Positions 4,839-46,606 of a stretch of DNA of 64,000 nt are shown in pieces. Position 1 is the stretch's first letter. Every line of letters begins with the position of its first letter. Origin of the DNA: an uncultured Candidatus Saccharibacteria bacterium. Lineage in GTDB: Bacteria; Patescibacteriota; Minisyncoccia; Phycocordibacterales; UBA5272. The translations under genes were made by a program, and so were the position numbers. The notes under the pieces were generated by a model. That model made no database searches. It was not told the origin of the DNA and saw only the letters and a list, made by a program, of their open reading frames with translations. The stretch spans positions 2,237-66,236 of the forward strand of contig CAYJED010000005.1 of NCBI GenBank assembly GCA_964369115.1, given 5' to 3'.

Positions 4839-6464
4839 TTATTTTTGTACAATATGTTGCTTAAGATAGGTAAGTGAGGCGCCTACTTTTTTTCCTGGAT
4901 TAAGAACACCGAGAGGATCCCAAACATTTTTTATTTTTTTAAAGAGGTTGATAATTTGGTCGCTATACGAGTATGACAAAAATGGAGTTCGCATAAGACC
5001 TTCACCAGAAGACATACTGACACCTCCTTTGTATTCTTTTATAATTGCACAGATATCTTGCGTTACCCTAAGGAGGGTGTCTCCGTAGTGTTCGTTGTGT
5101 TTATCAAAGAGAAGAGTGATAGAAATATTACCAACATCAATTGCTCCAGTTAAGATATGTGGGAGCCCTTTTTTGTGGAGATAGTTTTCGATATCAAGAA
5201 GAGCTTCTTTTATTTGTGGACTGGTAACAACAAGATCATTTAAGCCACTGTAAATACTAAAAGCTCCTCGGGTATAATCTTCACACAAAGAAAAGAGAAA
5301 CCCTTTTTCTGTTATTGTTTCAAAAAGTTCTATACCAGAAACATATTTTATAGTAAAAGCTTCAACAGGGATTTTTTTAAGGTAACTCTCTATTTTTTCT
5401 TGAAGAGATGCTTCGCTTTTTCCACTGAAAGTAAGTGCAAGTACATATGGTGTTTCTGAAAAAAATGGAACCATGCCTTGTCTATATTTTTGAGCGAGTT
5501 GCATGAAGGTTTCGTCGTATAAAAACATTTTTTCACCTCCTTTATTTTTTGCTTCACGGATGCACACTTCGAGATCTTTTTTATTATGAAGAGGTATGTA
5601 TATTGTTCCGGTGTGTGATTTTTTGTGTGTAATGCGAAAAGTTGCAGAAGTGATAATGGCAAGAGTTCCTTCTGATCCAATTATTTCATCGATAAGTTGT
5701 CGTGGCCCGATTGAGGTGTCCCATATACGATATCCGCTCCCGTCAACATGAGATAAAGGTTTGTGTGCTCGAAGCAGTGGAGCCTCCTCTGTAAGAAGAG
5801 GGAATAGAGCTTGATAAATACCAAGAAGTCTTCCGTGAGGGGTTATGCCTTCCTTAAGAATATGTTCTTCTCCTTCGTCTGTTACTATGGTTATAGATTC
5901 AATCCAATCACGTAAAGAACCAAAAGAGAAGGTTCCAAAAGTTGCACCATTGGTTGCAATAAGGCCCCCAACAGTTGAAGGGTCTTTCTTTGAAAGAAGA
6001 GGTATGTCGTAATTTATTGGGTGTAATCTCTCAAGGAGTTCTTCAACAGAAAATCCAGCTTCAGCAGTTACTGTATTTTCTAAAAGATTCACCGAACGCA
6101 TGCGTGTAAAGTAACGCGACATATCAATGATCACACCTTCACCTAAAGCTCCCCCGTTACCACCTATTCCTTTTCCTCGCACAGTAACAGGGATTTTATA
6201 TTCACGTGAAAAAGAAAGAATGTGTTTTATATCGCTTGGATTTTTAGGATAAACAACTGCTTGAGGTGTAATAAAAAAAGGGGATAAATCTTTGGTGTAT
6301 TTTTGTAATGTTTCATATGAGCAATCAATATCACCGTGAAGCATTTTTGCTACATCTTGAAAGAGTGGAGGTATGCGATGTGTTGAATTAGAGACCGTTA
6401 TCATAGATGCTTTTACCGTTTTGATGAACGAGAAAGAAAATAAAAGTAAGTGTACATAAAACAA
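4839..6464 (-). CDS. FAD-linked oxidase (PCMH-type FAD-binding domain, GlcD/D-lactate-dehydrogenase-like) with N-terminal signal/TM segment
   Basis: VRGKGIGGNGGALGEGVIIDMS matches the FAD_binding_4 Gly-rich loop. The hydrophobic N-terminus MFYVHLLLFSFSFIKT suggests secretion or anchoring. Confidence 0.6.
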   Translation of the reverse strand: MFYVHLLLFSFSFIKTVKASMITVSNSTHRIPPLFQDVAKMLHGDIDCSYETLQKYTKDLSPFFITPQAVVYPKNPSDIKHILSFSREYKIPVTVRGKGIGGNGGALGEGVIIDMSRYFTRMRSVNLLENTVTAEAGFSVEELLERLHPINYDIPLLSKKDPSTVGGLIATNGATFGTFSFGSLRDWIESITIVTDEGEEHILKEGITPHGRLLGIYQALFPLLTEEAPLLRAHKPLSHVDGSGYRIWDTSIGPRQLIDEIIGSEGTLAIITSATFRITHKKSHTGTIYIPLHNKKDLEVCIREAKNKGGEKMFLYDETFMQLAQKYRQGMVPFFSETPYVLALTFSGKSEASLQEKIESYLKKIPVEAFTIKYVSGIELFETITEKGFLFSLCEDYTRGAFSIYSGLNDLVVTSPQIKEALLDIENYLHKKGLPHILTGAIDVGNISITLLFDKHNEHYGDTLLRVTQDICAIIKEYKGGVSMSSGEGLMRTPFLSYSYSDQIINLFKKIKNVWDPLGVLNPGKKVGASLTYLKQHIVQK

Positions 6465-8799: not shown

Positions 8800-10206
8800 A
8801 TGACTTTAACCTTAAAAGAAATTGAGACCGCTCTTGACCAGCTAGTAAAAAGACATCCGGATATTGATACGGAGTTACTAACAACGTTACTTACTGCGTC
8901 CGGATGGGAAAAGGCACAACTTAAAGATGCTACGCTTTTGTTTAAACAAAAGTATCCAGAAAAAGCAAAAGAAAAACCTGTTTCTCAAGAAAAAAAATCT
9001 AGTGAAGGGATTCCTTCTGTGCGTAAACAAGAAACTATTTCTGTTCCACCTGCTCCCACTTCGCGTCCTGTTGTAAGGCAACAGCAGAATATTGGTTTTT
9101 TTGAAGCACTGTTTCAAGCTTTTTTTGGTGGTAACTCTTCTCCTAAAACAGCGCCAGCAACTATTCAGGTCCCACTTCCTCCTAAAGAGGAGGTGAAAAA
9201 AGTTGAACCACCTAAAGAAAGTAAGGTGAATACTCAGCCTGATGTAACACCTCAGGTGATACAGCAAAAAGAAGAGGTGCATGTTGTGGCTACTCCTGTT
9301 CTCTCTAAGAAAGAGGAAAAAGTTTTTATACCCCCAGTTCAGCCTGTTATAGTGCCTCCACCTGTTTCCTCTCCACAAGTTGTACCAGTGTCACCTCCTA
9401 AAAAAGAAGTGATTGAGGAAAAAAATCTTACAAAGCAGGTTATAGAAAAATCGTCAGTACAGAAAAGTGAAACTCCTTCATTTTTATCAGCACTGTTTCG
9501 TGCATTTTTTGGAGAACCAGGCGAAAGGGGTGAAGGAAGGGTGTTGGATAAAAAAGAAATTACCGCAGATGTAAAAAAAGAAGTACCGCTACCTGCTCCT
9601 CCTAAAAAGGAAGAACATCAAGAAGTTCGTCCTCAAGAGGTCACACCTCCTCCTGTTGTTTTGCCTGAGCAACGCATCGTTTCTGAGTCTGTTCAGAAAA
9701 ATAATCTCACCGAATCAAGGTCAGCACTTCAAAGAGAGTATGCTACAGAAGGGATTGCTATTAGTGCTATGGATAATGTTGCGGTTGATGATGTTGGGCA
9801 GGCACCTGTACTTGATATACTTCCTGCGCCTGTAGAGCAACCTCCTGTAAAAGAAGAAAAAGTCACCACCTCACTTATTGAAACTACAGTTAGTTTGCCT
9901 GAAAAAAAACAAGGGGAACTTCCTCATAATCTTCCTATTGTTCCTTTCGAATCTTCAAATCACGTGTGGGCGCTTAAAGATTATAAGGAAACTTTCCACA
10001 AAGAAAAGGAAGTTGAGCAGAAAAAAGAGGAACCTGTGTCACAAAGTTCTGCGCCAGCTGTTATAGAGGATAACGGTGAAGAAGACATTGTCCTTGAAAG
10101 TGTTCCGCTTACAAGAGGAGATGAGTCACTTGTTTTTATGGCCGGGGTTATGCTTCTTGTTATAATCTTAATACTGGGATATATGTACAGTAACGGGCGT
10201 TTATAA
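8800..10206 (+). CDS. Pro/Lys/Glu-rich low-complexity envelope protein with C-terminal TM anchor
   Basis: Extensive PPxK/PxV repeats. An amphipathic motif repeats twice (EALFQAFFGGNSSPK and SALFRAFFGEPGERG). There is a C-terminal hydrophobic helix LVFMAGVMLLVIILILGYMY. Confidence 0.4.
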   Translation: MTLTLKEIETALDQLVKRHPDIDTELLTTLLTASGWEKAQLKDATLLFKQKYPEKAKEKPVSQEKKSSEGIPSVRKQETISVPPAPTSRPVVRQQQNIGFFEALFQAFFGGNSSPKTAPATIQVPLPPKEEVKKVEPPKESKVNTQPDVTPQVIQQKEEVHVVATPVLSKKEEKVFIPPVQPVIVPPPVSSPQVVPVSPPKKEVIEEKNLTKQVIEKSSVQKSETPSFLSALFRAFFGEPGERGEGRVLDKKEITADVKKEVPLPAPPKKEEHQEVRPQEVTPPPVVLPEQRIVSESVQKNNLTESRSALQREYATEGIAISAMDNVAVDDVGQAPVLDILPAPVEQPPVKEEKVTTSLIETTVSLPEKKQGELPHNLPIVPFESSNHVWALKDYKETFHKEKEVEQKKEEPVSQSSAPAVIEDNGEEDIVLESVPLTRGDESLVFMAGVMLLVIILILGYMYSNGRL

Positions 10207-15374: not shown

Positions 15375-17072
15375 ATGAATTCGCGCGATACTATTTTTTC
15401 AGTCCTTAAAGAACTTAATCCTTCAGCTTCTTTTTCTCTTACTCAACCTGAAGAGACTGCTCATGGCGACTATGCTACCAACATTGCCTTTACTCTTTCA
15501 AAAGAAAAGGGTATTTCTCCGAAAGCGTGTGCTGAAGAACTTGCTACAGTTTTAGCAGAGAAATGTTCTTCAGTTGTAGAAAAGGTGGAGGTTGCTGGTC
15601 CTGGGTTTCTTAATTTTTTCTTGCGAAATGATGTGCGTACTGATGAAGTAGAAGAGCTTGCGTCATATGGTGTACTTCGACCGCTTCGCGACGAGCAGGT
15701 GCTTGTTGAGTACACTGATCCAAATTGCTTTAAGGTATTTCATATTGGTCACCTTATGTCTAACACTATAGGTGAATCACTTGCGCGTCTCTATGAAGCT
15801 GTTGGGTATGACGTGCTTCGTGTATGTTATCCGTCTGATATTGGGCGCAATGTGGCGATGGGGGTGTGGGGAGTGATGAAAAGAAATGCAGAGAAACCTC
15901 CTAGAGATGCAAGTCTTAAAGATAAGGTAACATTTCTTGGTATGTGTTATGCCTACGCAAATCAGCAGTTTGAAGAGAGTGACGAGGCAAAAAAAGAGAT
16001 CATTGAAGTTAATAAGGCAATTTATGGAGGAACTGATGCGCATATTATGGAAGTGTATGCTGAAGGGCGAGCGCTCTCTTTAGAATACTTTGAGTCACTT
16101 TACAAAGAGCTTGGCACAACATTTGATGCCTACATTTCTGAATCAGAGGTTGCTGACCCAGGACTTTTTATTGTAAAAGAATACCTAAAGCGAGGAATCT
16201 TTGAAGAATCAGAAGGGGCTATTGTTTATAAGGGTGAACAGGACGGACTTCACACTCGTGTGTTTGTGAACAAAGAAGGGCTTCCAACATATGAGGCAAA
16301 AGAGCTTGGAAATTATGAAAAGAAAATTGAACTTCTTCCAAATGCTTCAAAGTACGTCATTATTACCGCAAGTGAACAAAGAGAATACTTTAAAGTAATT
16401 AATGCGGTTACCGAAAAAATACACCCAACTCTCAAAGGTAAACTTGTACACATAAGTCACGGCATGATGCGTCTTCCTACAGGGAAGATGTCTTCACGAA
16501 CCGGAAATGTGATTGGAGGGGAAGATCTTCTTAATGATATTAAAGAGACTATCACAGAGAGGGTTAAAGAAATGCGCGTAGAAGATGATGAGAAAGCTTC
16601 ACTTGTGAGCGCTATTGCGGTAGGGGCTATTAAATTCTCTGTACTTAAAATTGCGCCAGGAAAAGATATTGCTTTTGATTTTGAGAAATCAATTTCTTTC
16701 GAAGGTGATTCTGGTCCGTATCTTCAGTACACACATGCACGCCTCTCGGCTCTTTTGGATAAAGGAAATGAAAATAGTATTGCGTATGAACACGGCTACG
16801 TTGTTACCTCTTCTGAGAAGGAGCTTGAGAAAGCTCTCATTGGATATAAAGAGGTGCTCATAAAAGCATATGAAGAACTTAGTCCGCATCACATTGTGCA
16901 ACACTTACTTCTCGTAACACGACTCTTTAATAATATGTACTCACGTGTGCAGATTGTAAACGTAGAGAATAAAGATGAGAGTATGTATTACCTCATGCTT
17001 ACTAAGGCAACCAAAGAAGTTCTTAGTCACGGTCTCAGTGTTTTAGGAATCAATGCTCCAAACAGAATGTAA
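15375..17072 (+). CDS. argS: Arginine--tRNA ligase
   Basis: Class I HIGH motif FHIGHLMSNTIGESLARL, and the Arg-tRNA-synthetase N-terminal and DALR anticodon-binding architecture. Confidence 0.85.
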   Translation: MNSRDTIFSVLKELNPSASFSLTQPEETAHGDYATNIAFTLSKEKGISPKACAEELATVLAEKCSSVVEKVEVAGPGFLNFFLRNDVRTDEVEELASYGVLRPLRDEQVLVEYTDPNCFKVFHIGHLMSNTIGESLARLYEAVGYDVLRVCYPSDIGRNVAMGVWGVMKRNAEKPPRDASLKDKVTFLGMCYAYANQQFEESDEAKKEIIEVNKAIYGGTDAHIMEVYAEGRALSLEYFESLYKELGTTFDAYISESEVADPGLFIVKEYLKRGIFEESEGAIVYKGEQDGLHTRVFVNKEGLPTYEAKELGNYEKKIELLPNASKYVIITASEQREYFKVINAVTEKIHPTLKGKLVHISHGMMRLPTGKMSSRTGNVIGGEDLLNDIKETITERVKEMRVEDDEKASLVSAIAVGAIKFSVLKIAPGKDIAFDFEKSISFEGDSGPYLQYTHARLSALLDKGNENSIAYEHGYVVTSSEKELEKALIGYKEVLIKAYEELSPHHIVQHLLLVTRLFNNMYSRVQIVNVENKDESMYYLMLTKATKEVLSHGLSVLGINAPNRM

Positions 17073-17080: not shown

Positions 17081-17704
17081 CTATTCGTGGTGTTCTTTAT
17101 AAAAGCGTTCGATTACTTTTTCAATAAGTTTTGGAAGAACTGTTGCTGTGATCATAATTGCAACTATTACAGTAAGAACATAAGCAATCCCATGTTGCAC
17201 AGAAAGAGCATTTGAAAATCCTTTCCCTAAATACCAACCTACAGGGAAGATTGCTCCAAGGAAAAAAGTGGTACCTATTGCATTAAGGATGATCTTTTTC
17301 CAGAAAGGAATTTTATTTTTAAGAACAATATACAGGGTGAGCACAAGTCGCATTCCAATTAGGAATTTAATAAAGATAAGCACCAAGAAGAAGTGGGTAT
17401 CAACAAGTCGAATAAAAAAACGACTTGATTTTTTTGCCGTTGCTTTTGCTAAATGTTCATCATACGAATGGCGTAAGTATCGTTCGGCAATAAAAAACCA
17501 AAAAATATCAGAAAGAATGGATCCTGTAAATGCAGACAGTACAGCTGTTACAGGATGAATGAACCCTTGAGCTGAGAGTGCAAAAATTGCAATTGCAGCA
17601 TTCTCCCCAAGAAAGAAAACACTAACAACAGTAGTAAGCACCCCATGATGCTCAAGAAGTATTCGAAGAGATTCTATAAGTTCAGTAACAAATCCTTGTT
17701 CCAT
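17081..17704 (-). CDS. DedA/VTT-like membrane protein
   Basis: Small polytopic membrane protein. VVSVFFLGENAAIAIFALSAQG resembles the DedA signature region. Confidence 0.35.
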   Translation of the reverse strand: MEQGFVTELIESLRILLEHHGVLTTVVSVFFLGENAAIAIFALSAQGFIHPVTAVLSAFTGSILSDIFWFFIAERYLRHSYDEHLAKATAKKSSRFFIRLVDTHFFLVLIFIKFLIGMRLVLTLYIVLKNKIPFWKKIILNAIGTTFFLGAIFPVGWYLGKGFSNALSVQHGIAYVLTVIVAIMITATVLPKLIEKVIERFYKEHHE

Positions 17705-17722
17705 TTTTAATAGTGTATCATT

Positions 17723-18550
17723 TTAGTAGTCACGAAGCTTGAAATCATACATTCTGCGGTAAAGTACAGCCCAAAGACGTATATACATAATCCTATACCC
17801 CTCACTACTTGGGTGAAGTCCGTCATGAGAGAAAAAATTATCTGGACATCTTTCATCTTCTAGGAAAATTGGCACTGCTTCAATATTAAAATCTCTTGAA
17901 ACTCTCATAAAGATTTGATTAATTTTATTTGTTCTGTAAAGAATAATTGGTCGAACAATGAGAGGGAAGACTGGGCCTGAGGCAATGTTGTTATAAATAA
18001 TAACCACCACATTATTCCCTGCAATGTTTTTTGCACGTGCAAGTAGTTCTCGAAGAGAGTTTTCAATAGCATCCATTTTTGTCATTTTCCAGGTATCGTT
18101 TCCTCCTGTACTAATAATAACTAAGTTATATTTTGCTTTCTCAATTTCTGCCTTTTCGACTTGTTTAAGTGCATCTTTGGTGACAGAGCCATTTACTGCA
18201 TAATTATCAACCTGCACCTGAGGAAAGTCATGAGCAAATCTTCCTGTTAAAGTATCTTCAAGTTTGTCTGCCCCTGTTCCGTATGCTGTACTATCTCCTA
18301 ACACGAGGATTCTTTTATCTTTCCCTTCATTTAATATTCGAGGTCTTTCTGTGGCAATTTTTGCTAAATTTCTATTACGTTTTCCGTTTTCGATCATTTT
18401 ATTTATGCTCTCCAAAGAAGAAAGAAGAAGTAAAAATGGAACAATAAGCCCATAAACAATAGTTTGATTGGTGTGGAAAAAAGAGAAAAAAGCCTCTACG
18501 GCATCAAGGAAATTTTCGTTGCTAAAAATAGCATAAATAATATTTTCCAT
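17723..18550 (-). CDS. SGNH/GDSL-family hydrolase with N-terminal TM anchor
   Basis: Block I ILVLGDSTAYGTGA (GDS) and block V DGLHPSSEGY (DxxH). Confidence 0.6.
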   Translation of the reverse strand: MENIIYAIFSNENFLDAVEAFFSFFHTNQTIVYGLIVPFLLLLSSLESINKMIENGKRNRNLAKIATERPRILNEGKDKRILVLGDSTAYGTGADKLEDTLTGRFAHDFPQVQVDNYAVNGSVTKDALKQVEKAEIEKAKYNLVIISTGGNDTWKMTKMDAIENSLRELLARAKNIAGNNVVVIIYNNIASGPVFPLIVRPIILYRTNKINQIFMRVSRDFNIEAVPIFLEDERCPDNFFSHDGLHPSSEGYRIMYIRLWAVLYRRMYDFKLRDY

Positions 18551-18680
18551 TTTAATCTTTTAAAGAGTTTGTAAGATAGAGTATATCCTATTCAAAAACC
18601 TTATTTTTATTAGGGGTATGGGGATAGTGGTCACTTTTTTACGACGCTACGCGGTACTATTACAGTAAGAAGATGTCAAA

Positions 18681-20273
18681 ATGTCTTTATTTTTAACAAA
18701 AAAGAAGATCGTCATTGGCGCCCTTATATTTTTATTTTTTGGGGCGGTTGTTTCGTTTGCTGTGTTTTTTTCGAATGATAAAAACGAAGTTTTTTTAGTT
18801 AAGTCTCAGTCTATGACGGAAGAGGTTGTTGCAACAGGCAGAGTTGAAGGTTTAACAAGTGCATCTTTTGGTTTTAAAAATGGAGGTAAGGTGACTTCGC
18901 TTTTGGTAAGCGTTGGGGATACTGTTAAAAAAGGACAAGAGCTTCTTTTTCAGGATACAAGTGCTCTTGATTCACAGATAGCAGAACTTGATGCAGCCAT
19001 TAGAGTGGAACGTGCGCGCCTTAGTCAGTTGCGGGCAGGGTCTTCTTTAGAAGAGATTGAAATAGTTTCTTCAAATGTTGAAGGGGCAGGGGTTGCTTTA
19101 GAGAGCGCAGAAACAAATCTTACGATTGCTAAACAAGCTGTTGTTGACGCTCTTAAAAGTACGTATACAATTGCTGAAGATGGGGTTAAAAATAAGGCCG
19201 ACAAACTCTTTACTAACCCTAACTCAAATGATCCACGACTTTTATTTCAGTCCTCTAATTTCCTACTTGGAAATGAATTAGAGGCAATGAGGGTTGGTGT
19301 GGGCAAGGAACTAAAAGAGCTTAGTAAAGAAGTCTCTGGTCTCAGTGTTGATTCAGATCTCAGTGGAAAGATAACCGCAATAAGAAAAAGGGTTGAGGCT
19401 GTGAAGGTTTTTTTGGAAAAGACTTCTCAATACACTGTTTCCGTTGAGGCTCTTCCTTCGGCACTGCTTCAGACTTCTTTTGAGGTAACGAAAGCTGAGC
19501 TCACACAAGCAAAAAATGCAATTAACTCTTCTCTTTCTCAGATCACTCAAGCTCAGGCAACGTTTACACAAACAACATCCGTTAAAGCTTCCGCAAAAAC
19601 AACTCTCACTACAGTTAATAGGCAGCTTGAGCAAGTTAAAGCCTCTGCACGAGGGACTGACGTTGCTGTGTACCAAGCTCAGCTTGAGCAAGCTATGGCA
19701 GCAAAAAGAAAAGTAGAAACTTTGCGTAGTGACTTTGTTATCACCGCTCCTTTTGATGGGGTTATTACAGATGTTCCTATAAAGCTAGGTGAAGTTGCAC
19801 AGGGTGGTGTTCCTGCTGTTTCGATTCTTTCATATGAAAAATTACAAATAAAGGCAAATATTGTTGAGCATAATATAGTTAGAGTGCGCATTGGTCAGCA
19901 AGTGTTCTTTACCCTTGATGCAATGCCTTCTAAAAAGTTTAAAGGTAAGGTTATCGCAATTGATCCTGCAGAAAAAGAAATCAATAATACCATTTATTAT
20001 AAAGCAACAATTGATCTTGAAGAGAAGGTTGAATTTTTGCGCCCAGGAATGACAGCAAATGTTTTTATTGTTGCTTCTCAGCTAGAAGATATTATTGCTG
20101 TTCCTGCAGCGAGTATTTTTGAGCGAGAAGGGGTTCGGTATGTGAAGGTATTACGCGGCAAAGATGAAGAAGAAAGAGTTGTCACTGTTGGAATTTATGA
20201 TAGAGAAGGAATGGTGCAGATAATCGAAGGTCTTCAGTCAAACGAAATAATTGCCCTTTCCCCAACATTATGA
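18681..20273 (+). CDS. HlyD-family periplasmic adaptor (membrane fusion protein) of a MacAB-like efflux system
   Basis: N-terminal TM, a long coiled-coil middle region, and a C-terminal beta-barrel-like segment ...VITAPFDGVITDVPIKLGEV... Confidence 0.55.
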   Translation: MSLFLTKKKIVIGALIFLFFGAVVSFAVFFSNDKNEVFLVKSQSMTEEVVATGRVEGLTSASFGFKNGGKVTSLLVSVGDTVKKGQELLFQDTSALDSQIAELDAAIRVERARLSQLRAGSSLEEIEIVSSNVEGAGVALESAETNLTIAKQAVVDALKSTYTIAEDGVKNKADKLFTNPNSNDPRLLFQSSNFLLGNELEAMRVGVGKELKELSKEVSGLSVDSDLSGKITAIRKRVEAVKVFLEKTSQYTVSVEALPSALLQTSFEVTKAELTQAKNAINSSLSQITQAQATFTQTTSVKASAKTTLTTVNRQLEQVKASARGTDVAVYQAQLEQAMAAKRKVETLRSDFVITAPFDGVITDVPIKLGEVAQGGVPAVSILSYEKLQIKANIVEHNIVRVRIGQQVFFTLDAMPSKKFKGKVIAIDPAEKEINNTIYYKATIDLEEKVEFLRPGMTANVFIVASQLEDIIAVPAASIFEREGVRYVKVLRGKDEEERVVTVGIYDREGMVQIIEGLQSNEIIALSPTL

Positions 20274-21502
20274 GTCTTCATGATCTTAACGCTGCGCTTT
20301 TCATAGCTTATAAGACAATTGTAAAAGGTAACAAGTCAGTAACTATTCTTCTCATTACTGTTCTCAGCCTTGTTTTTTTTAACCTTATTTTTATAAAAGC
20401 ATTTCTTACTGGTTTTTCTGAAGGTGTTCTCCAATCGATGATAGACACCAGCACTGCGCATATTATTCTTTCACCAGAAGAGAAGCCTATTCAAAAAAGT
20501 TTTATACCAAATCAAGAAAAATTACGTAATCAAATTGAAACAATTCCAGGTGTCGTAGGCACACTAAGACATTATTCTGTCGGAGGGACCATTTCTTTTG
20601 ATAAAAATAAAACAGGATCAGTAAAGTATGTTTCTGCGCCAATTTTAGGTTTTAATCAGAAAGAAGAAAAGACAATTATGGGCGTACATAAAGTTATACG
20701 ATCAGGCACGTTTCCTGACATACTTAACGATGACGAGATTTTAATCGGTGCAAGTTTGGCTGGTGATTATGAAAACAGTGTTCAAGGTTCTGATTTGGGG
20801 GGCGTGCGCGCAGGTGACAAAGTTACTGTTCATTATGTGAACGGAGTTAATAAAATTTATACCGTACGAGGTATTTTTGAAGTAACAATAGGTTTTACAG
20901 GTAGTAGTGCTTTTATTTCTGACAAAGAAGCAGAGCGTATTCTTTCCGTATTTGATCAATCTTCAGAAATTTTGGTGCGTGTTGATCTTACAAAATATCC
21001 AATTGAATCGTATGTAAGACGTATACAAACTATTGCCCCACAACTAAAAATAGAGATATATAAAGACCGCCTTGCTGCAGTGGGTAGTCTTATTGATGCT
21101 TTTAATGTTATAGCGCTCATTATTGTTATTGTAAGCATTCTTGTTTCTGCTGCTACCATTTTTATAATGATTTATATTAATGCGCTTAGCAAGAAAAGAC
21201 ATATTGGAATTTTAAAAGCGATTGGTATTAAAAATGAAAGTATCGAGTTATCGTATATGTTGCAAGCTGTTTTTTTTTCACTTCTTGCCACAATAACCGG
21301 AAGCGTATTTTTTGTAGGAATTGTTCGTCCTTACATGGAAGCGAATCCAATCAAGATGCCGTATGGAGACGCTCTTCTTATTGTTGCTCCACAAGAAATT
21401 ATTATTTACGCAGTTTTACTTATTGGGGCTTCTTTATTTGCGGGAATGTTTTCTTCTCGAGTTATTGCAAGAAAGCCAATAGTTGAAAATATTTGGAAAT
21501 AG
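20270..21502 (+). CDS. ABC transporter permease (FtsX/MacB-type)
   Basis: N-terminal TM, a large periplasmic domain, and a C-terminal FtsX-like 3-TM bundle. Its start overlaps the upstream adaptor stop, indicating translational coupling. Confidence 0.55.
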   Translation: MSLHDLNAALFIAYKTIVKGNKSVTILLITVLSLVFFNLIFIKAFLTGFSEGVLQSMIDTSTAHIILSPEEKPIQKSFIPNQEKLRNQIETIPGVVGTLRHYSVGGTISFDKNKTGSVKYVSAPILGFNQKEEKTIMGVHKVIRSGTFPDILNDDEILIGASLAGDYENSVQGSDLGGVRAGDKVTVHYVNGVNKIYTVRGIFEVTIGFTGSSAFISDKEAERILSVFDQSSEILVRVDLTKYPIESYVRRIQTIAPQLKIEIYKDRLAAVGSLIDAFNVIALIIVIVSILVSAATIFIMIYINALSKKRHIGILKAIGIKNESIELSYMLQAVFFSLLATITGSVFFVGIVRPYMEANPIKMPYGDALLIVAPQEIIIYAVLLIGASLFAGMFSSRVIARKPIVENIWK

Positions 21503-22223
21503 TAATTATATGATTCATGTACGTAATCTAAAAAAAATATATGGAGAGGAGGGGGAGTCTCTGGTAAAAGCTCTTAACGATGTTTTTTTTACTATTAAAG
21601 ATGGAGAATTTATTGGACTTATGGGGAGAAGTGGTTCAGGTAAATCAACTCTGCTTCATCACTTAGGTCTTCTCGATACTCAAACTGAAGGAACTATTAT
21701 TATTGACGGTTTCGACACCACACTTCTTTCCGAGGATGAAAAAACACTTTTTCGACTTACTAAGCTTGGATATGTTTTTCAAGAGTATGGGCTTATTCCT
21801 GAATTTTCTGCATTAGAAAATGTATGCTTCCCTGCTCTTTCTCTTGGAAACATGGAGGCAACTTCTCGTGGCGAAGAATTACTTAGGTATGTTGGTTTAG
21901 GTGACAGAATACATTATTACCCTCATGAGCTTTCTGGTGGACAGCAGCAACGTGTGGCAATCGCCCGAGCTCTTATTAATGACCCTGCAATTATTTTTGC
22001 TGACGAACCTACTGCTAACCTAGATAGTCTTGGCACTGAAATGGTTCTCGCCCTCTTTAAAAAACTACATGAAGATTTTGGTAAAACCATTGTAATGGTA
22101 ACGCACGAAGAAAGTGATCGCCACTTGGTGGACAGGGTTCTTTTTATGAAAGACGGCTTTATTGTGAGTGATACACGCAAAGAAGATGTTGCAACAAGTA
22201 AGAGTAAAGTGTTGCGCTCTTAA
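21483..22223 (+). CDS. ABC transporter ATP-binding protein (MacB/LolD-like)
   Basis: Walker A GRSGSGKST, signature LSGGQQQRVAIARAL, Walker B IIFADEPT. Confidence 0.8.
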   Translation: MKIFGNSNYMIHVRNLKKIYGEEGESLVKALNDVFFTIKDGEFIGLMGRSGSGKSTLLHHLGLLDTQTEGTIIIDGFDTTLLSEDEKTLFRLTKLGYVFQEYGLIPEFSALENVCFPALSLGNMEATSRGEELLRYVGLGDRIHYYPHELSGGQQQRVAIARALINDPAIIFADEPTANLDSLGTEMVLALFKKLHEDFGKTIVMVTHEESDRHLVDRVLFMKDGFIVSDTRKEDVATSKSKVLRS

Positions 22224-22487: not shown

Positions 22488-25400
22488 ATGACAAATCCTC
22501 ATCAACAAAAAACCGTAAACGAAAAAGAACAAGAGACACTTCTCTTCTGGCAAGAAAATAACATTTTTGAGAAGTCTATAGTAAATCCAGGAGGTGAAAA
22601 ACCTTTAGGTGACTTTTCTTTTTATGATGGACCTCCTTTTGCGACAGGGCTTCCTCACTATGGTCATATTCTGGCGGGTACCATTAAAGATGCTGTGCCA
22701 CGCTATCAGACGATGAAGGGTAATAGTGTTCGTCGTGTATGGGGATGGGACTGTCACGGTCTTCCAATAGAAAACCTTATTGAGAAAAAATTAGGACTTG
22801 CAAGCAAAAAAGACATTGAAGATTTTGGTATTGATAAGTTTAATAAAGATGCGTATGAAAGCGTGCTTCAGTATGAAAAAGAGTGGCAGAGTATCGTGCC
22901 TCGACTAGGAAGATGGATAGATATGGATCATCCGTATAAGACAATGGATGCAACGTATACAGAAAGTATTTGGTGGGCTTGGAAAACGTTGTATAAAAAG
23001 AAACTTGCCTATGAGGGTAATAAAATGATGCATATCTGCCCACGTTGCGAAACACCGCTTGCACAGTCAGAAGTTGGTCTTGAATACCATGATGTTACCG
23101 ATCTCTCTGTGACGGCCAAATTTGAGCTCGTGGATGAGCCTGGTACATTTGTGCTTGCTTGGACAACTACCCCATGGACACTTCCTGGAAATACCGCGCT
23201 TGCAATTAATAGGGAGATTGTCTATGTGAAAGTGAAAGCTTTTAAAAGGCTTCCTCTTGCGGAAGCTGTTGACGTTAATAATAGCGGTTATGCTGGCAAT
23301 GGTGACCCTGAATTTTACATTCTTGCAAAAACTCAATTTGAGGAATATAAAAATCACTCAGAAAAAGATTTTGCTATTTTTAAAATAGAAGAAGAATTTA
23401 CAGGAGAAAAACTTGAGGGCAAAACATATCACCCTGTATTTTCATATTTCAAAGATACTCACACTGACTATAAAGAAAAGATTTGGAAAATTTGGCATGC
23501 AGATTTTATTACTGATGATACGGGAACTGGTATTGCACACGAGGCGCCAGCATTTGGTGCTGAGGATATGGAACTCGCAAAGCTTCACAATATCCCGGTG
23601 ATTAAACATGTAAAGATGGATGGAACATTTATTGACGCCGTCACCGATTTTGCTGGAAAGAAAGTAAAACAAAAAGATGACACTCAGTCAGCGGACATCG
23701 AAATCATTAAGTGGCTTGCTCATAACGGTAAACTTTTTGAGAAACATAAAATTATTCACTCATACCCACTTTGTTGGCGATGTAAAACGCCGTTACTCAA
23801 CTATGCGACAAGTAGTTGGTTTGTTGATGTTCCGTCTATAAAAGATACACTCATTTCAGAAAATAAAGCTATTGGATGGACACCGTCTCATACTCGTGAC
23901 GGGCGTTTCGGTAAATGGCTAGAAGGTGCTCGTGAATGGGCGGTTTCACGCACAAGATATTGGGGCGCACCACTTCCTGTTTGGAAAAATGCTTCAGGAA
24001 CTGAAGTGAAGGTTATTGGGTCACTTAAAGAACTTGTAGAGAATTCATTTTCACAACCTAAAAATACGTACTATGTGATGCGTCACGGTGAGGCTCACAG
24101 TAATGTAAAAGGGGTAATGGACAAAGGAACAGATGTTCATAATCATCTTACCGAAAAGGGGGTAACGCAGGTGGAAGTGTCAGCAAAGAATTTACATGAC
24201 AAGGGAATTGATATGATACTTGCTTCTCCTGTTGTGCGAGGAAGAGAAACGGCAGAGATTGTCAGTAAAGAACTTGGTCTTTCCGTTTCATTTGATGAGC
24301 GACTCAAGGAATATGATATGGGTATCTACGATGGTAAAACTCGTGAGGAATTCTTCGCTCAATTTGATAGTTCTTTTGTAGAATACGATGCTCGTCCAGA
24401 AGGAGGAGAGACACATAGAGAGATGATGCATCGTATGATGGCTCTTGTGCACGAGCTTGAGAATACCTACGAAGGTAAAACTATACTCCTTGTTACCCAC
24501 GGAGGACCTGCTCGTATGGTATTTGCTGGCGCATCACTTCTTACCGAAGAAGAAGTTGTGACAGATGATGTTCATAATGGAGCAACTCTTTATCCGACAA
24601 ATGCAGAAGTGCGCCATCTTCCACTTCATATTGTTCCTCGTGACGAAACTGGAGCTGTTAATCTCCATCGTCCGTACATTGATCAGGTGGTGCTTAAAGA
24701 TAACACAGGTGCACCGATGCATCGTATCGTGGACGTATTTGATTGTTGGTTTGAGTCAGGGTCTATGCCATTTGCTCAGCTGCACTATCCATTTGAAAAT
24801 AAAGAACTCTTCGATAAAAATTACCCAGCACAGTTTATTGCTGAAGGGCTTGATCAGACACGAGGGTGGTTTTATTCCCTCATTAATCTTGGTGTGGGTC
24901 TTTTTGGAAAAGCTCCATATGAGCATGTTATTGTAAACGGCCTTGTTCTCGCATCTTCTGGCGTAAAACTTTCTAAGAGTGAAAAAAATTACACTGACCC
25001 AATGCTTCTTGTAGAAAAGTATGGAGCAGACGCTATGCGCTATGCGCTCCTCTCCTCTCCTGTGGTAAAAGGGGAAAACCTTCAATTTGATGATGAACTT
25101 ATTGCTGACGTGTATAAGAAATGTATTTTACGTCTTGAAAATGTGCTTACCTTGTATCAGATGAATGCACCTGAAGCGGTTACTCCTTCAACAACATCTG
25201 ACAATGTTCTTGATCAATGGATGATCTCAAGAGTGCATGAGCTTATTACCGCTTCTACAGAAGGGTATGATGCATATCTTCTTGATGATGCAACTCGTGG
25301 AATTGGGGAAATTATTGATGATCTCTCTGTGTGGTATACACGCAGATCACGTGAACGTCTTAAAGGGGATATGGGCGAAGAAGAAAAAATAAAAGCATAC

Positions 25401-26003
25401 GAAACTCTTTCATATGTACTCCTTACACTTACTAAAGTAATGGCCCCAGTAATGCCATTTATTGCGGAACGAGTGTACAAGGACCTTAATGGTAAAAAAG
25501 AATCGGTACATCTTGAAAAGTGGCCAGAGATATCTTCTGTAGATACCGCTCTTCTTAAAAAAATGAAGAATACACGTAAAGTTGCCTCGCTTGCACTTAT
25601 GGAGCGCAACAAAGCAAAAATTGGTGTTCGTCAGCCTCTTACGTCTATAACAACAGGATTTATATTTAACGAACTATATACAGACATTATTGCAGATGAA
25701 GTAAACGTAAAACAAGTTATTGAAGATACAACTCTCGGAGAAGACGAAGTGAAGCTTGATACCGTCATTACTGAAGAACTTCAAAAAGAAGGAGATGTGC
25801 GTAACTTAATGCGTGCTATTCAAGATCTCCGTAAAGAGAAAGGGGTTGCGTACACAGATATAGTTCACGTTGTTTCTGATCATGAAATTATCCTTAATCC
25901 GCAAGTTGCTCCGGCGTGTAAAGTTATAGCTTCAGTTGAAAATACTGTAAACGGAACAGAAGTTGAACTTTCTTTTGGAAAAGTAATTGTTTCACTTAAG
26001 TAA
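22488..26003 (+). CDS. ileS: Isoleucine--tRNA ligase, type 2 (eukaryote-like), with an inserted histidine-phosphatase-like domain
   Basis: PFATGLPHYGHILAGTIKD (HIGH), WDCHGLPIE, editing CP1 domain, KLSKS, and FDCWFESGSMPFAQ. An insertion between ~aa 521 and 715 carries the histidine-phosphatase motifs MRHGEAHSN and LVTHGG. Confidence 0.9.
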   Translation: MTNPHQQKTVNEKEQETLLFWQENNIFEKSIVNPGGEKPLGDFSFYDGPPFATGLPHYGHILAGTIKDAVPRYQTMKGNSVRRVWGWDCHGLPIENLIEKKLGLASKKDIEDFGIDKFNKDAYESVLQYEKEWQSIVPRLGRWIDMDHPYKTMDATYTESIWWAWKTLYKKKLAYEGNKMMHICPRCETPLAQSEVGLEYHDVTDLSVTAKFELVDEPGTFVLAWTTTPWTLPGNTALAINREIVYVKVKAFKRLPLAEAVDVNNSGYAGNGDPEFYILAKTQFEEYKNHSEKDFAIFKIEEEFTGEKLEGKTYHPVFSYFKDTHTDYKEKIWKIWHADFITDDTGTGIAHEAPAFGAEDMELAKLHNIPVIKHVKMDGTFIDAVTDFAGKKVKQKDDTQSADIEIIKWLAHNGKLFEKHKIIHSYPLCWRCKTPLLNYATSSWFVDVPSIKDTLISENKAIGWTPSHTRDGRFGKWLEGAREWAVSRTRYWGAPLPVWKNASGTEVKVIGSLKELVENSFSQPKNTYYVMRHGEAHSNVKGVMDKGTDVHNHLTEKGVTQVEVSAKNLHDKGIDMILASPVVRGRETAEIVSKELGLSVSFDERLKEYDMGIYDGKTREEFFAQFDSSFVEYDARPEGGETHREMMHRMMALVHELENTYEGKTILLVTHGGPARMVFAGASLLTEEEVVTDDVHNGATLYPTNAEVRHLPLHIVPRDETGAVNLHRPYIDQVVLKDNTGAPMHRIVDVFDCWFESGSMPFAQLHYPFENKELFDKNYPAQFIAEGLDQTRGWFYSLINLGVGLFGKAPYEHVIVNGLVLASSGVKLSKSEKNYTDPMLLVEKYGADAMRYALLSSPVVKGENLQFDDELIADVYKKCILRLENVLTLYQMNAPEAVTPSTTSDNVLDQWMISRVHELITASTEGYDAYLLDDATRGIGEIIDDLSVWYTRRSRERLKGDMGEEEKIKAYETLSYVLLTLTKVMAPVMPFIAERVYKDLNGKKESVHLEKWPEISSVDTALLKKMKNTRKVASLALMERNKAKIGVRQPLTSITTGFIFNELYTDIIADEVNVKQVIEDTTLGEDEVKLDTVITEELQKEGDVRNLMRAIQDLRKEKGVAYTDIVHVVSDHEIILNPQVAPACKVIASVENTVNGTEVELSFGKVIVSLK

Positions 26004-26015: not shown

Positions 26016-26570
26016 ATGGCTATTGAAAAATACGTCACAAGAGCGATTATCCTTGATGTTTATGATCAAGGTGAGCATGATCGTGCATATAAAGCATTTA
26101 CGAGAGATTTTGGACTTATTATATGTCATGCAAAAAGTATCAGAAAACTTGAAAGTAAGTTACGACCCCATGTACTTCCTCGTTCAGTAACAACGCTTAC
26201 CTTAGTAAAAGGGCGTGAAGTATGGCGTATTGTTGGTGCAGAAAAAGAAAATAGAGATTGCTCTTTTGTTCATGAAACAACGCTTCTCCTTGGTCGTTTT
26301 ATTAGAGGGGAAGGAGCACATAAGAATCTCTACGACAAAGTTGATGCATTCTTACATTCAAAAGACGGGTTTGAGGAGAGATATGCTCGCCTCCTTTTGT
26401 ATTACATTCTTCTTGTTGAGCTTGGGTACGTTGACATAGAGGTTGCTCATATTGAAGGTGTTGCTGCATATAAAAAAATGACGTTACCAGAACTTTATAC
26501 TCATATTATTTTAAGTGAGCAACATGTCCGTAGACATATCAATGATGTTCTCAAGGAAATGCAGCTGTAA
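26016..26570 (+). CDS. recO: Short RecO-like DNA repair protein
   Basis: N-terminal OB-fold pattern RAIILDVYDQGEHDRAYKAFTRDFGLIICHAKSIRKLESKLRPHVLP...LTLVKGREVWRIVGAE is similar to the RecO N-terminus. It is shorter than typical RecO and has no obvious zinc finger. Confidence 0.45.
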   Translation: MAIEKYVTRAIILDVYDQGEHDRAYKAFTRDFGLIICHAKSIRKLESKLRPHVLPRSVTTLTLVKGREVWRIVGAEKENRDCSFVHETTLLLGRFIRGEGAHKNLYDKVDAFLHSKDGFEERYARLLLYYILLVELGYVDIEVAHIEGVAAYKKMTLPELYTHIILSEQHVRRHINDVLKEMQL

Positions 26571-34782: not shown

Positions 34783-35394
34783 ATGCACCCTAAAAAAGAA
34801 AGAACGTTTGTAATCCTTAAGCCTGACGCAGTTCAGCGAGGACTTGTGGGTGAAATTATTAAGCGTTTTGAACGTATTGGCCTTAAGATTGTTGGGATGA
34901 AAATGCACACGGTAAAAGAAGATGTGCTCTGGAATCACTACAATAAAGATGATGCGTGGTACCAGAAGAAAGGGGCTTCCATCATCGAAAACAAGAAGAA
35001 GCTCAGCCTTCCTATAGAAAAAGAACCTCTTGAGTACGGTAAAGATATTATTCGTGCCATGGCTCACTATATGTGTGCTGGACCTGTTGTTTCTCTTGTG
35101 ATTGAAGGAAACAATGCTCAGGCTGTGGTAAAGCGTCTTGTTGGCGGAACTGAGCCTGCAACAGCTGACTCTGGAACTATTCGTGGAGATTACGCTCTCG
35201 ATTCATATTTCCTCTGTGATACTGACGGGTCACGTGGAATGCGTAACCTTATTCACTGTACCGATCCGGCAGATGGTGAAGGGGCGTATCAGCGTGAAGT
35301 TGACCTTTGGTTTACTAAAGAAGAGCTTATGAATTACCGTCTCGTAACTGAAGCAATGCTTTACGATGTAAACTTAGACGGAATTAGAGAATAG
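34783..35394 (+). CDS. ndk: Nucleoside diphosphate kinase (long form with internal insertion)
   Basis: ERTFVILKPDAVQRGLVGEIIKRFERIGLKIVGMKM and the active-site region NLIHCTD. It is ~55 aa longer than canonical Ndk. Confidence 0.75.
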   Translation: MHPKKERTFVILKPDAVQRGLVGEIIKRFERIGLKIVGMKMHTVKEDVLWNHYNKDDAWYQKKGASIIENKKKLSLPIEKEPLEYGKDIIRAMAHYMCAGPVVSLVIEGNNAQAVVKRLVGGTEPATADSGTIRGDYALDSYFLCDTDGSRGMRNLIHCTDPADGEGAYQREVDLWFTKEELMNYRLVTEAMLYDVNLDGIRE

Positions 35395-40749: not shown

Positions 40750-42150
40750 ATGAGTATCATTAGAAAAAGTGTCGGTACTGGAATTATTATTTTTATTTTC
40801 ATGACACATCAGGCTTTTGCGGTATCTCTTTTAGAGAGTATTCCAATAAGTTGTTTTAATTCTCCGTATTATAAATACGGAAGTGTTCAGGCAAAAGTTA
40901 ATCAGAAACTTGCCACAGTTGAAGCTGGAAACGATTTGCCTTTTGGTGGGGTGATTATTAATAATAATCAGCATCCAATTTCCGAGGCACTTCTTTACGT
41001 AAAAATTGTCGAGGCAAAAAAAGGTCCGTGGGTGCAACGTAACGGCTACAATGTTGTGGATCAATTTGTTGCCGTGCGAGATCTTCCAATTGCTGCAAGT
41101 AGTTCAAAACAGATTACGTTTACATGGAAAACCCCAAAAGGGTTAGCTCCAGGGGAGTATAGAGCTCTTTACTATGTTTCTCTTAAAGAAGATAAAGACA
41201 TTAGCGGTCTTAATTTTTCTGATGATATCACAGCAAATCAGACTTCATTTAAAGTAACTTCAAAACAAGTAGATAATGCTCCTGTTTTTTTTGTAAAAGA
41301 CAAAGTAACACTTAATGGTATGGCGAATGAATTTGCTCGACCTCAGCTTGAGTTTTTGGCTGGGACGCCTGTCACCTTAAAAGCAACCCTAAAGAACCCT
41401 TCAAAGAAAGAGACTAAAGTTATCGTGACATATAAATATACCGACTGGGGACCACTTTTTGGAACACCAGAAGTAACTCGAGAATCTTTTGTAATCCCTG
41501 CAGGTAAGACGCAGGAAATTACAAAAACCTTTTATTCAAAAGGATATGTTGCTCCGTTTATTTTGGTGAGTGCATACGATGAAACAACTGGAGTAAAGTC
41601 CGAGCTTAATATTCGCTACAGTGATGATAAAAAAGGGGTTCGTGCTCACTACCTTGGGGTAATGAAGTTTCCATTAAAAGAAGATGAACAAACTGAGGTC
41701 TATACATGTTTTCATGCTCTTAATGAAACTGGATATGGAAATGGACAAGTAAAAGTAGAGTTAAGAGGATATGATAGAAGTGGTCGTGAAATCTTCAGTA
41801 AAGAAGAAATGACATCTTCTACCAATCTTCCAAAACAGGGTCTTGCGTACAAGCTTCAAGCAACACGAGATATTACCTATCTTAAACTTGAATCTGTTAT
41901 AACGGCCGACGGTGTAACATATAGTGCTGCAACAACTTATGATTGTTTAATTCTTAATAACTGCCCTGAGCTTAAGTACAAAGGAACAGATTTGTATAAA
42001 CAGGCAAACAAGGAACGCTCTGGTACTTCTCCGTTCTTTGCAGGGACTGTTGCGGGAATATTATTTATTCTTATTACTGGAAGCACAGTGTTTTTCTTAA
42101 GAAAAAAAATCTTTAAAGATAAAGAAAGTGAAAAGCCTGTAAATAATTAA
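40750..42150 (+). CDS. Secreted, C-terminally TM-anchored surface protein (hypothetical)
   Basis: Signal-peptide-like N-terminus, a beta-rich body, and a C-terminal helix FFAGTVAGILFILITGSTVFFL followed by RKK. Confidence 0.4.
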   Translation: MSIIRKSVGTGIIIFIFMTHQAFAVSLLESIPISCFNSPYYKYGSVQAKVNQKLATVEAGNDLPFGGVIINNNQHPISEALLYVKIVEAKKGPWVQRNGYNVVDQFVAVRDLPIAASSSKQITFTWKTPKGLAPGEYRALYYVSLKEDKDISGLNFSDDITANQTSFKVTSKQVDNAPVFFVKDKVTLNGMANEFARPQLEFLAGTPVTLKATLKNPSKKETKVIVTYKYTDWGPLFGTPEVTRESFVIPAGKTQEITKTFYSKGYVAPFILVSAYDETTGVKSELNIRYSDDKKGVRAHYLGVMKFPLKEDEQTEVYTCFHALNETGYGNGQVKVELRGYDRSGREIFSKEEMTSSTNLPKQGLAYKLQATRDITYLKLESVITADGVTYSAATTYDCLILNNCPELKYKGTDLYKQANKERSGTSPFFAGTVAGILFILITGSTVFFLRKKIFKDKESEKPVNN

Positions 42151-43259: not shown

Positions 43260-43324
43260 CCCATCTCCACAAAATTAAAATACTCCACCTAAAAGGTGGA
43301 GTATTTTAATTTTGTGGAGATGGG
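43260..43324. repeat. Perfect 30-bp palindrome (inverted repeat with 5-nt loop) overlapping the 3' end of ssrA
   Basis: cccatctccacaaaattaaaatactccacc / taaaa / ggtggagtattttaattttgtggagatggg. Confidence 0.8.
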
Positions 43325-46373: not shown

Positions 46374-46606
46374 GAGCAAACCTTCTCTTTCTTGTTTCAT
46401 CCCTTCAACTATTTGAGGGGATCTTTTTATTATGAGATTTTATTTTTATTTTGTCAAAATATAAAAAAGTTACATAGGCCTTGCCTGTGTAACTTTTTTA
46501 TTCACTTGTTTTTTATAAACAAAGTGCGCCTCCTTGGACCAGAAACCTATGGACCTGTTCGTGTACTAAGGCAAGATTTCTACAGTTAACCAAAAAATAC
46601 TCTGAG

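Follow-up and report, generated by a model that had tools for sequence, protein, structure and literature searches.

A histidine phosphatase domain nested in the type-2 isoleucyl-tRNA synthetase of Candidate Phyla Radiation bacteria

The 64,000-nucleotide stretch of contig CAYJED010000005.1 analysed here (GenBank assembly GCA_964369115.1; hereafter the window) was found to carry an ileS gene in which a type-2 (eukaryote-like) isoleucyl-tRNA synthetase (IleRS) is combined with an intact branch-1 histidine phosphatase. The gene (22488-26003; coordinates refer to the window and, unless stated otherwise, to its forward strand) is a single uninterrupted open reading frame (ORF), and its 1171-aa product carries the phosphatase as a nested domain. 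This protein is one member of a widespread, unpublished group of IleRS with nested enzymes in the Candidate Phyla Radiation (CPR).

The synthetase and the domain nested in it

Against NCBIfam model TIGR00392 the ileS product scored 805.9 bits (cutoff 621.4), the match being divided into two stretches that flank the insert. Pfam recognized tRNA-synt_1 (PF00133), Anticodon_1 and the type-2 C-terminal domain DUF5915, and placed His_Phos_1 between the two halves of tRNA-synt_1. The best structural matches of the full-length AlphaFold2 (AF2) model were P. megaterium IleRS2 (8c8v, E=1.5e-64) and yeast IleRS with tRNA (8wnd). In the translation the HIGH signature of the aminoacylation site is PHYGH (aa 56-60; 22653-22667) and the KMSKS signature is KLSKS (aa 827-831; 24966-24980). 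P56, H57 and G59 of the former and K827, S829, K830 and S831 of the latter are invariant in an alignment of 119 homologues, as are the CP1 editing motifs TTTPWT and GTG.AH. HIGH, KMSKS, the CP1 editing motifs, Anticodon_1 and DUF5915 are all held in common with the type-2 IleRS of structures 8C8V, 1ILE (T. thermophilus), 8WND and 6LDK. The annotated ORFs of the window include no further ileS and, with its aminoacylation and editing signatures all intact at the sequence level, this IleRS is presumably the housekeeping enzyme of the organism.

The boundaries of the insert were mapped by alignment to solved type-2 IleRS. Residues 15-492 and 498-795 of human cytoplasmic IleRS (9w01) align to aa 13-520 and 725-1010 of the query, such that a linker of ~5 aa becomes one of ~204 aa, and P. 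megaterium IleRS2 (8c8v) gave the same result. A reading made from the sequence alone had placed an insertion of ~195 aa at 24048-24633 (aa 521-715); its start was confirmed, while the full insert, consisting of the phosphatase domain and short linkers, reaches aa 722 (24048-24653). The upstream anchor is the YWGAPLP motif at the end of the CP2-CP3 linker (aa 491-497; 23958-23978) and the downstream anchor is DCWFESG (aa 752-758; 24741-24761). These motifs are 261 aa apart in the query and 60-77 aa apart in insert-free relatives (YWGxPxP to DxWFESG). The insert is indeed foreign to canonical IleRS, being absent from both 9w01 and 8c8v. Its GC content (0.427) differs little from the 0.396 of the flanking sequence, with no compositional break.

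As query aa 519 is equivalent in the alignment to residue 498 of C. albicans IleRS, in which the CP3 subdomain comprises residues 473-534 (PMC7191050), the insert is assigned to CP3. In yeast IleRS CP3 comprises residues 459-526 and comes next after the CP2-CP3 linker (..SRNRYWG), which helps to line the tRNA-CCA/reveromycin pocket (PMC7955072). The insertion point is a surface loop of CP3, right behind the CP2-CP3 linker and beside the catalytic core. The topology of CP3 varies among IleRSs, with a Zn knuckle in Thermus (PMC7191050). Known type-2 enzymes have a CP3 of ~60 aa that is either beta-beta-alpha-alpha (Candida) or a Zn knuckle (Thermus, P. megaterium), whereas in that of the window an enzyme domain of 202 aa interrupts the subdomain and the Zn-knuckle cysteines are missing, which in P. 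megaterium (CxxC...CxxC) align on both sides of the same point.

The insert is a member of the histidine phosphatase superfamily, branch 1, as judged from sequence and predicted fold. The His_Phos_1 (PF00300) core covers aa 529-689 (24072-24554; profile positions 2-165 of 194) and its score was 125.5 bits (E=2.8e-36) for the full-length protein and 130.4 bits (E=8.4e-38) for the insert alone (cutoff 21.7). Within the full-length AF2 model the insert has a pLDDT of 91-97, and when modelled by itself (pLDDT 89, pTM 0.88) it adopts an alpha/beta/alpha fold of the phosphoglycerate-mutase type. Foldseek aligned it to short-form branch-1 phosphatases with TM scores of 0.73-0.78, a root mean square deviation of 2.3-3 Å and E-values down to 1.4e-15; the matches were GpgP (6s2q/4pz9), PspA (4ij5/6), PhoE (1h2e), the riboflavin-pathway HFP and CobC (6nru), and PhoE was the best sequence match among solved structures. 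These short forms (PhoE/YhfR, 1H2E and 1EBB; PspA, 4IJ5; GpgP, 4PZ9 and 6S2Q; CobC, 6NRU and 6E4B; HFP, 9MMH) resemble the insert in fold and in length (~190-200 aa) and have the same complete set of catalytic motifs, RHG...N, SPxxR, GE and HG. Identity to the insert is 20-30%, and the known enzymes are free-standing and metabolic, whereas the insert is nested in, or encoded beside, a synthetase.

The four motifs noted in the sequence-only reading are all present and hold the predicted active site, assigned from conservation: R532 and H533 of the RHG motif (24081-24086), H533 being the predicted phospho-acceptor; the phosphate-binding N539 of RHGExxxN (24102-24104); R584, the second phosphate-binding Arg (SPxxR; 24237-24239), which is the first and not the second Arg of PVVRGRE; E641, the predicted proton donor (GGE; 24408-24410), aligned with the GE motif of PhoE; and the second catalytic His, H671 (THG; 24498-24500). 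R532, H533, N539, R584, E608, G612, E641, R649 and H671 are invariant in the 119 close homologues. Among 84 divergent copies at the same site (site A, see below) R584 is found in 84, E641 and H671 in 83 each, and R532 and H533 in every one of the 82 copies without a gap at that point (two are gapped); the set is also retained in 83 copies outside site A, for 167 representative domains altogether. The 119 copies of Gracilibacteria/Peregrinibacteria type retain both His residues throughout, R532 and R584 in 118 each, N539 in 117 and E641 in 115. The nested phosphatase is hence likely to be catalytically active, and the suggestion that it might be a degenerate insertion is disfavoured by this strict conservation.

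The same architecture, PF00133 together with PF00300, was found in all 120 best database homologues (62-100% identity, 1138-1214 aa), drawn from NCBI, JGI, ENA and Logan assemblies, so that the survey of relatives proposed at the outset returned the same insertion with the catalytic His and Arg residues in place. IleRS with nested His_Phos_1 occur in Yanofskybacteria, Paceibacterota and Patescibacteria metagenome-assembled genomes. An assembly join, already dismissed in the sequence-only reading, or a frameshift was ruled out by the unbroken ORF, the even composition, the presence of the identical protein on several contigs and in several sources, the uniformity of the 120 homologues and recurrence in hundreds of independent assemblies. 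A split gene, with the phosphatase and the C-terminal half encoded separately, was likewise rejected; representatives that begin with the phosphatase are truncated at contig edges (in P0171, for example, only 45 nt separate the start of the gene from the end of the contig).

When the insert alone was searched against 1.84 billion representative proteins, its top 150 relatives comprised 87 IleRS-embedded forms (full-length or fragments), 53 free proteins of ~190 aa and 10 tandem pairs. Names attached to the fused enzymes in databases include 'class I tRNA ligase family protein', 'hypothetical protein' and 'GNAT family N-acetyltransferase', and at JGI 'isoleucyl-tRNA synthetase/phosphohistidine phosphatase SixA/...'. 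Conversely, a free-standing 189-aa phosphatase (P0303) is labelled 'isoleucyl-tRNA synthetase', and names transferred between members of this family cannot be relied upon.

Insertion loops, fusion partners and the free phosphatase gene

Motif spacing was surveyed in 176 full-length IleRS, a sample biased towards relatives of the two queries, and three loops were found to accept insertions, all within the catalytic body and bracketing the KMSKS segment. Site A is the CP3 loop used in the window; site B, for which DCWFESG is the upstream anchor, lies between DxWFESG and (D/E)QxRGWF; and site C lies ~60 aa past KMSKS, ahead of the anticodon-binding domain, and is empty in the IleRS of the window, where KMSKS and WYxR are 122 aa apart. 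The spacing is ~60 aa when loop A is empty and ~200-300 or 434 aa when it is occupied, with corresponding values of 31-37 and 150-460 aa for loop B and 122-138 and 250-312 aa for loop C. Outside the three loops spacing is rigid, with for example 38-46 aa from QTRGWF to KMSKS throughout. Loop A alone is occupied in 107 proteins, C alone in 29 and B alone in 7; B and C are filled together in 13, A and C in 6, A and B in 3 and all three loops in 3, while 8 proteins have none. CPR IleRS carry one to three phosphatase copies, and two-insert forms are present on contigs of up to 1.06 Mb. Recent intragenic duplication as the source of the multi-copy forms was rejected, copies within one protein being just 33-39% identical.

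IleRS of Gracilibacteria, Peregrinibacteria and Peribacteria contain further nested enzymes, mostly alongside the phosphatase. P0411 has a GNAT domain at loop B and the phosphatase at loop C; P-loop kinases (AAA_33/AAA_18) with intact Walker A motifs co-occur with the phosphatase in five proteins (P0461, P0476, P0481, P0482 and P0484); P0450 has a nested serine hydrolase; and DUF559 (REase_MTES_1575) endonuclease-like domains are found in frame, e.g. in P0412 (1374 aa) and P0476 (1753 aa), in the latter at aa 294-399 in the CP1 region, a fourth location. In P0460 two capped HAD_2 phosphatases with intact DxDGV motifs occupy loop B instead of the histidine phosphatase, and their sequences suggest convergent phosphatase recruitment. 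According to a precomputed Pfam list, one of P0482 (1790 aa), P0476 and P0412 contains a Y1 transposase-like domain (PF01797), which hints that domains derived from mobile elements also lodge in CPR IleRS.

Two unusual proteins were noted in this group. P0161 has phosphatase domains at a variant of site A lying behind the Zn knuckle and at sites B and C, with an in-frame TAA inside the third domain (4972-4974 of locus L030, and also in L031); the frame continues past it as ...NVKN-stop-HHLTEKG..., and the stop is present on two independent contigs. Pseudogenisation, a split enzyme or read-through could each explain it; recoding by genetic code 25 (UGA) was rejected, the stop being TAA and not TGA. 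P0121 (1161 aa; two contigs in ENA) consists of an N-terminal part of IleRS (tRNA-synt_1, aa 14-417) followed by four His_Phos_1 domains; the C-terminal half of the synthetase was not detected in this protein, perhaps a paralogue that has decayed or taken on another role.

Synthetases with additional domains, whether appended or nested, are already known, and the IleRS described here belongs with them. The CP1 editing domain of IleRS, ValRS and LeuRS and the INS domain of ProRS are autonomous hydrolase folds inserted in a loop of the Rossmann or catalytic domain. They share the nesting principle with the insert but hydrolyse aminoacyl esters and are universal within their families, whereas the insert has a phosphohydrolase fold, is lineage-specific and uses a different loop. 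A curated precedent for IleRS with an extra catalytic domain is the NCBIfam exception model NF040702 ('ileS_w_GNAT'), against which the IleRS of the window scores 270 bits (cutoff 1999); Pfam finds no GNAT domain in it. The literature search returned no paper describing IleRS with His_Phos, ileS_w_GNAT or other nested-enzyme IleRS architectures.

A profile built from the non-IleRS copies retrieved an abundant free-standing family in Patescibacteria. In all six contexts inspected the gene order is argS, free phosphatase, insert-free ileS (952-1002 aa) and, further on, recO, with phosphatase-to-ileS gaps of 2, 2, 4, -4, 35 and 941 bp. These six genomes are deeply divergent, their IleRS being 38-75% identical and their phosphatases 48-70% identical between the same pairs. 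The free gene stands in a housekeeping cluster (infC-rpmI-rplT, smpB, a pyrH-like gene, argS, phosphatase, ileS and recO), and recO was seen 3' of ileS in L018, L022, L026 and L027. In two insert-bearing loci the free gene is absent: in L014 argS abuts the phosphatase-bearing ileS, and in L015 (Yanofskybacteria) a reverse transcriptase gene lies between the two. That RVT_1 gene (3534-4502 of L015) has a counterpart in L027, where bAvd and RVT_1 genes beside the argS/ileS cluster (1255-2586) resemble a diversity-generating retroelement.

In the window argS, the ancestral upstream neighbour (15375-17072; Pfam Arg_tRNA_synt_N, tRNA-synt_1d and DALR_1), is separated from ileS by a 5.4-kb block (17081-22223), situated where the phosphatase gene alone is found in relatives and encoding a VTT-domain protein and a GDSL lipase on the reverse strand and an HlyD-FtsX-ABC efflux system on the forward strand. 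A recO-like gene, the conserved downstream partner of ileS, follows at 26016-26570 (RecO_N, E=2.6e-9). Within the window the profile of the free form matched the ileS ORF alone, with no free phosphatase gene. Large surface-type proteins with DUF11, CLIPPER or DUF7619 domains were observed 3' of recO in the window and at several other loci.

From these sequence comparisons we infer that the phosphatase family is specific to Patescibacteria and exists in insert-free lineages as a free gene that is often translationally coupled to ileS. The neighbour gene would have been internalised in IleRS at loop A in the Paceibacteria-type lineage to which the window belongs, and in loop B and/or C, as one to three copies, in Gracilibacteria/Peregrinibacteria-type lineages. 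A neighbour-joining tree of the IleRS core is too star-like to resolve gains and losses; it suggests no more than a clustering of the multi-site forms and an interleaving of insert-free with insert-bearing ones. Taken together, this account of the architecture and origin of the nested domain is very probably correct.

Partners other than IleRS were found within the top 150 relatives of the insert and are ArgRS (as a C-terminal fusion), Sua5/TsaC and QueC, with no others; each of these fusions recurs on at least two contigs or in at least two sources. A wider search with the profile of non-IleRS copies gave free-standing proteins only. The start of the Sua5-phosphatase gene overlaps the stop codon of an insert-free ileS in L033, where a CCA-adding enzyme and TGT are encoded nearby, and the QueC-phosphatase gene lies near a Vut_1 transporter gene. 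The linkage of phosphatase and ileS is hence found in three independent arrangements, namely as a neighbour gene, as a Sua5 fusion overlapping the ileS stop and as an internal insert at loop A, B or C, and the phosphatase is regarded as a genomic companion of ileS of ancient standing. Fusion of histidine phosphatases to enzymes of nucleotide chemistry is known from PFK-2/FBPase-2. Similar couplings are those of Rv2228c/RnhC (NF005567) and the Nudix-phosphatase MutT1 (NF052459); all three are joined end to end rather than nested, and the insert falls far below the cutoffs of the two models (326 and 475), though NF005567 is its top or near-top NCBIfam match (93-97 bits).

Possible function of the nested phosphatase

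The reading that we prefer, at a probability of about 0.4, is that the domain is a small-molecule phosphohydrolase functionally tied to the conversion of ATP to AMP and inorganic pyrophosphate (PPi). The synthetase and the phosphatase would fold and act independently, the former charging tRNA-Ile. In the latter H533 would be the nucleophile, R532, R584, N539 and H671 would grip the phosphate and E641 would serve as the acid. The substrate would be a small phosphorylated molecule made or bound at the adenylation site, with PPi favoured and a nucleotide phosphate as the alternative; PPi removal would keep the formation of Ile-AMP irreversible, as the kinetic proofreading of IleRS requires, and tethering would provide 1:1 stoichiometry and proximity. 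PPi itself as the substrate is a speculative and rather doubtful proposal.

A small-molecule substrate is favoured because the closest characterised relatives all act on small molecules and because the HAD domains that replace the phosphatase in P0460 are of the capped type; capped HADs are known to act on small molecules. The MutT1 phosphatase domain, which cleaves a phosphoanhydride, is a precedent for substrates other than monoesters. The tie to adenylation is drawn from the fusion partners, since IleRS, ArgRS, Sua5/TsaC and QueC all convert ATP to AMP and PPi via adenylate intermediates, and from the three loops, which all sit in the catalytic body around KMSKS. Moreover, no end-to-end fusion of phosphatase and IleRS was found among the 87 embedded forms, though the 2-4 bp gaps make loss of a stop codon the easiest route, which suggests that the position of the insert matters. 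Of the options raised in the sequence-only reading, an embedded or moonlighting phosphatase, there suggested to act for example on phosphorylated nucleotides or alarmones, remains the best; an editing activity found no support, the nearest relatives being small-molecule phosphomonoesterases.

Several observations weigh against this reading, in particular where PPi is concerned. No dedicated pyrophosphatase is known to us among the branch-1 histidine phosphatases, and the cap region (aa 608-640) is acidic, aromatic and poorly conserved, and so unlike a PPi site. The insert evolves faster than the synthetase core, its mean column conservation in the 119 homologues (0.64) being the lowest in the protein as compared with 0.84-0.88 in the catalytic core. 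It reached none of the NCBIfam equivalog cutoffs (dPGM_arch NF038349, 96 of 225 bits; CobC TIGR03162, 87 of 163; PspA NF045917, 69 of 350; GpmB NF002901, 65 of 261; SixA TIGR00249, 44 of 74.5; RNase H/acid phosphatase NF005567, 97 of 326), and its free-standing relatives likewise fell below every such cutoff, so that no characterised family can lend the domain its class of substrate. The GNAT, kinase, serine hydrolase and DUF559 domains of the same loops are not explained by PPi removal, and they suggest that IleRS loops are generally permissive to insertions. In one genome the ArgRS-phosphatase fusion stands in the usual cluster with recO directly next and without ileS, and the bias in partners could merely mirror the translation-gene neighbourhood of the free gene. 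Whether these lineages possess ppa is not addressed in the papers found by our literature search (in Méheust 2019 the word pyrophosphatase occurs solely within a reference). Among the annotated ORFs of the window ppa, tilS and PGM were not found.

A broader proposal, put forward tentatively and more probably wrong than right, is that the patescibacterial IleRS is a modular platform whose three loops recruit accessory enzymes (histidine or HAD phosphatases, GNATs, P-loop kinases and serine hydrolases) acting in cis on the traffic of the adenylation site. The phosphatase would then be an obligatory partner of adenylate-forming enzymes, either a dedicated local pyrophosphatase that makes activation and proofreading irreversible or a detoxifier of inhibitors that mimic adenylates.

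The domain may instead be a hitch-hiking housekeeping phosphatase or mutase, e.g. PGM-, PSP- or PhoE-like, captured from the ileS/argS neighbourhood into permissive loops, with co-expression in a streamlined genome as the only consequence of fusion. This is a doubtful explanation, in line with the metabolic role of the closest relatives, the conserved housekeeping cluster around the free gene, the faster evolution of the insert and the tolerance of unrelated domains, including DUF559 and the Y1 transposase-like domain, in the same loops; loss of a stop codon between neighbours would also account for the ArgRS fusion. Such a passenger would, however, be expected in terminal fusions with IleRS, which are mechanistically easiest and yet absent, while internal insertion occurred at three or four different sites. 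Retention of the ileS linkage in three arrangements over deep divergence and the unrelated HAD fold in the same loop of another lineage also speak against it, and 1:1 stoichiometry with a synthetase would be odd for a high-flux glycolytic enzyme.

Healing of tRNA ends is unlikely. Here the domain would remove a 3'-phosphate, a 2',3'-cyclic phosphate or a toxin-added (pyro)phosphate from the CCA end before charging and, together with a nested kinase, would resemble the T4 and mammalian polynucleotide kinase-phosphatase, which combines a P-loop kinase with a HAD phosphatase. toxSAS enzymes pyrophosphorylate tRNA CCA ends, and the phosphatase is nested in a tRNA-binding enzyme right behind the linker of the CCA pocket; some relatives do join an intact P-loop kinase and a phosphatase in one IleRS, and the CCA-adding enzyme and TGT lie near the ileS/Sua5-phosphatase pair of L033. 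The IleRS of the window, on the other hand, has no kinase, the HAD of P0460 that substitutes for the histidine phosphatase is the capped HAD_2 and not the polynucleotide kinase-phosphatase type. The closest solved relatives are all small-molecule enzymes, neither Sua5 nor QueC, the other partners, binds tRNA, the acceptor end is probably out of reach for loops B and C, and there is no evident reason why such repair should be needed in IleRS only and, rarely, in ArgRS.

Defence of an antibiotic target is still harder to support and is judged improbable. IleRS is a frequent target of antibiotics, and the nested phosphatase, GNAT, kinase and serine hydrolase, a set that matches the classes of small-molecule-modifying resistance enzymes, might inactivate mimics of Ile-AMP or other active-site inhibitors where they bind. 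We know of no phosphorylated IleRS inhibitor, and the free phosphatase is conserved in the manner of a housekeeping gene, with identities in the range of those of IleRS itself. The insert and two free-standing relatives had no family match in PADLOC-DB at E<=0.01. In favour of this reading, GNATs are on record as detoxifying the warheads of synthetase inhibitors, e.g. TfxH against the ArgRS inhibitor trifolitoxin (tiarin preprint, bioRxiv 10.64898/2025.12.02.691738).

It is highly improbable that the domain is a phosphoprotein phosphatase of the SixA/PGAM5 kind, serving in signalling or reversing an inhibitory phosphorylation of the synthetase, e.g. of HipA type at the KMSKS serine. HipA and HipT phosphorylate GltX and TrpS, loops B and C bracket KMSKS and the SixA profile gave its weak match, but the domain is full-size with a cap, unlike the minimal SixA, the QueC and Sua5 partners would be unexplained and no kinase toxin lies nearby within the window. 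Finally, a non-catalytic insert or an assembly or annotation artefact, to which only the low conservation of the insert lends colour, is effectively refuted by the invariant catalytic residues, the confidently predicted fold, the absence of a compositional break and the recurrence of the architecture across independent assemblies.

Other features of the window and implications

The only tRNA gene of the window encodes tRNA-Ile with anticodon UAU (46606-46679, reverse strand; loop C-U-UAU-A-C, no encoded CCA). It is unusual, because most bacteria decode AUA by a lysidine-modified CAU tRNA, and it may be relevant to tRNA recognition by the IleRS of the window. A tmRNA gene matches the full length of model RF00023 with 86.8 bits (43312-43705, reverse strand). 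The nucleoside diphosphate kinase (34783-35394) has 203 aa instead of the usual ~140-150, with a Pfam NDK match in two stretches, which suggests that internal insertion has affected a further protein of this genome. The 743-aa product of 56810-59041 joins a nitroreductase-family domain (aa 149-316) to a YcaO cyclodehydratase (aa 397-642), possibly for the modification of peptides. On the reverse strand 50575-56340 is a giant ORF (1921 aa), and for the ORFs spanning 8800-10206, 40750-42150, 42156-42920 and 60711-62396 (cited without strand) Pfam gave no match at E<=1e-4.

Few enzymes have been studied as thoroughly as the aminoacyl-tRNA synthetases, whose bacterial members are considered conservative in architecture. 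Across much of the CPR, however, an essential synthetase harbours a complete second enzyme next to its active site. The family of that enzyme is linked to ileS as a neighbour gene, through a Sua5 fusion and by insertion at three loops, and on comparative grounds this pattern points strongly to an uncharacterised functional partnership. Vague or wrong labels on the fused enzymes may mislead metabolic reconstructions, and the three permissive loops are ready sites for engineered domain insertions in IleRS. If the domain removes PPi or a by-product of adenylation, it would bear on how ultra-reduced cells make amino-acid activation irreversible and on their proofreading; were tRNA ends or inhibitors its substrates, it would be a new form of built-in repair or resistance. 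Should IleRS indeed be a modular platform, this would be a previously unrecognised layer of aminoacyl-tRNA synthetase function in a major branch of the bacteria.

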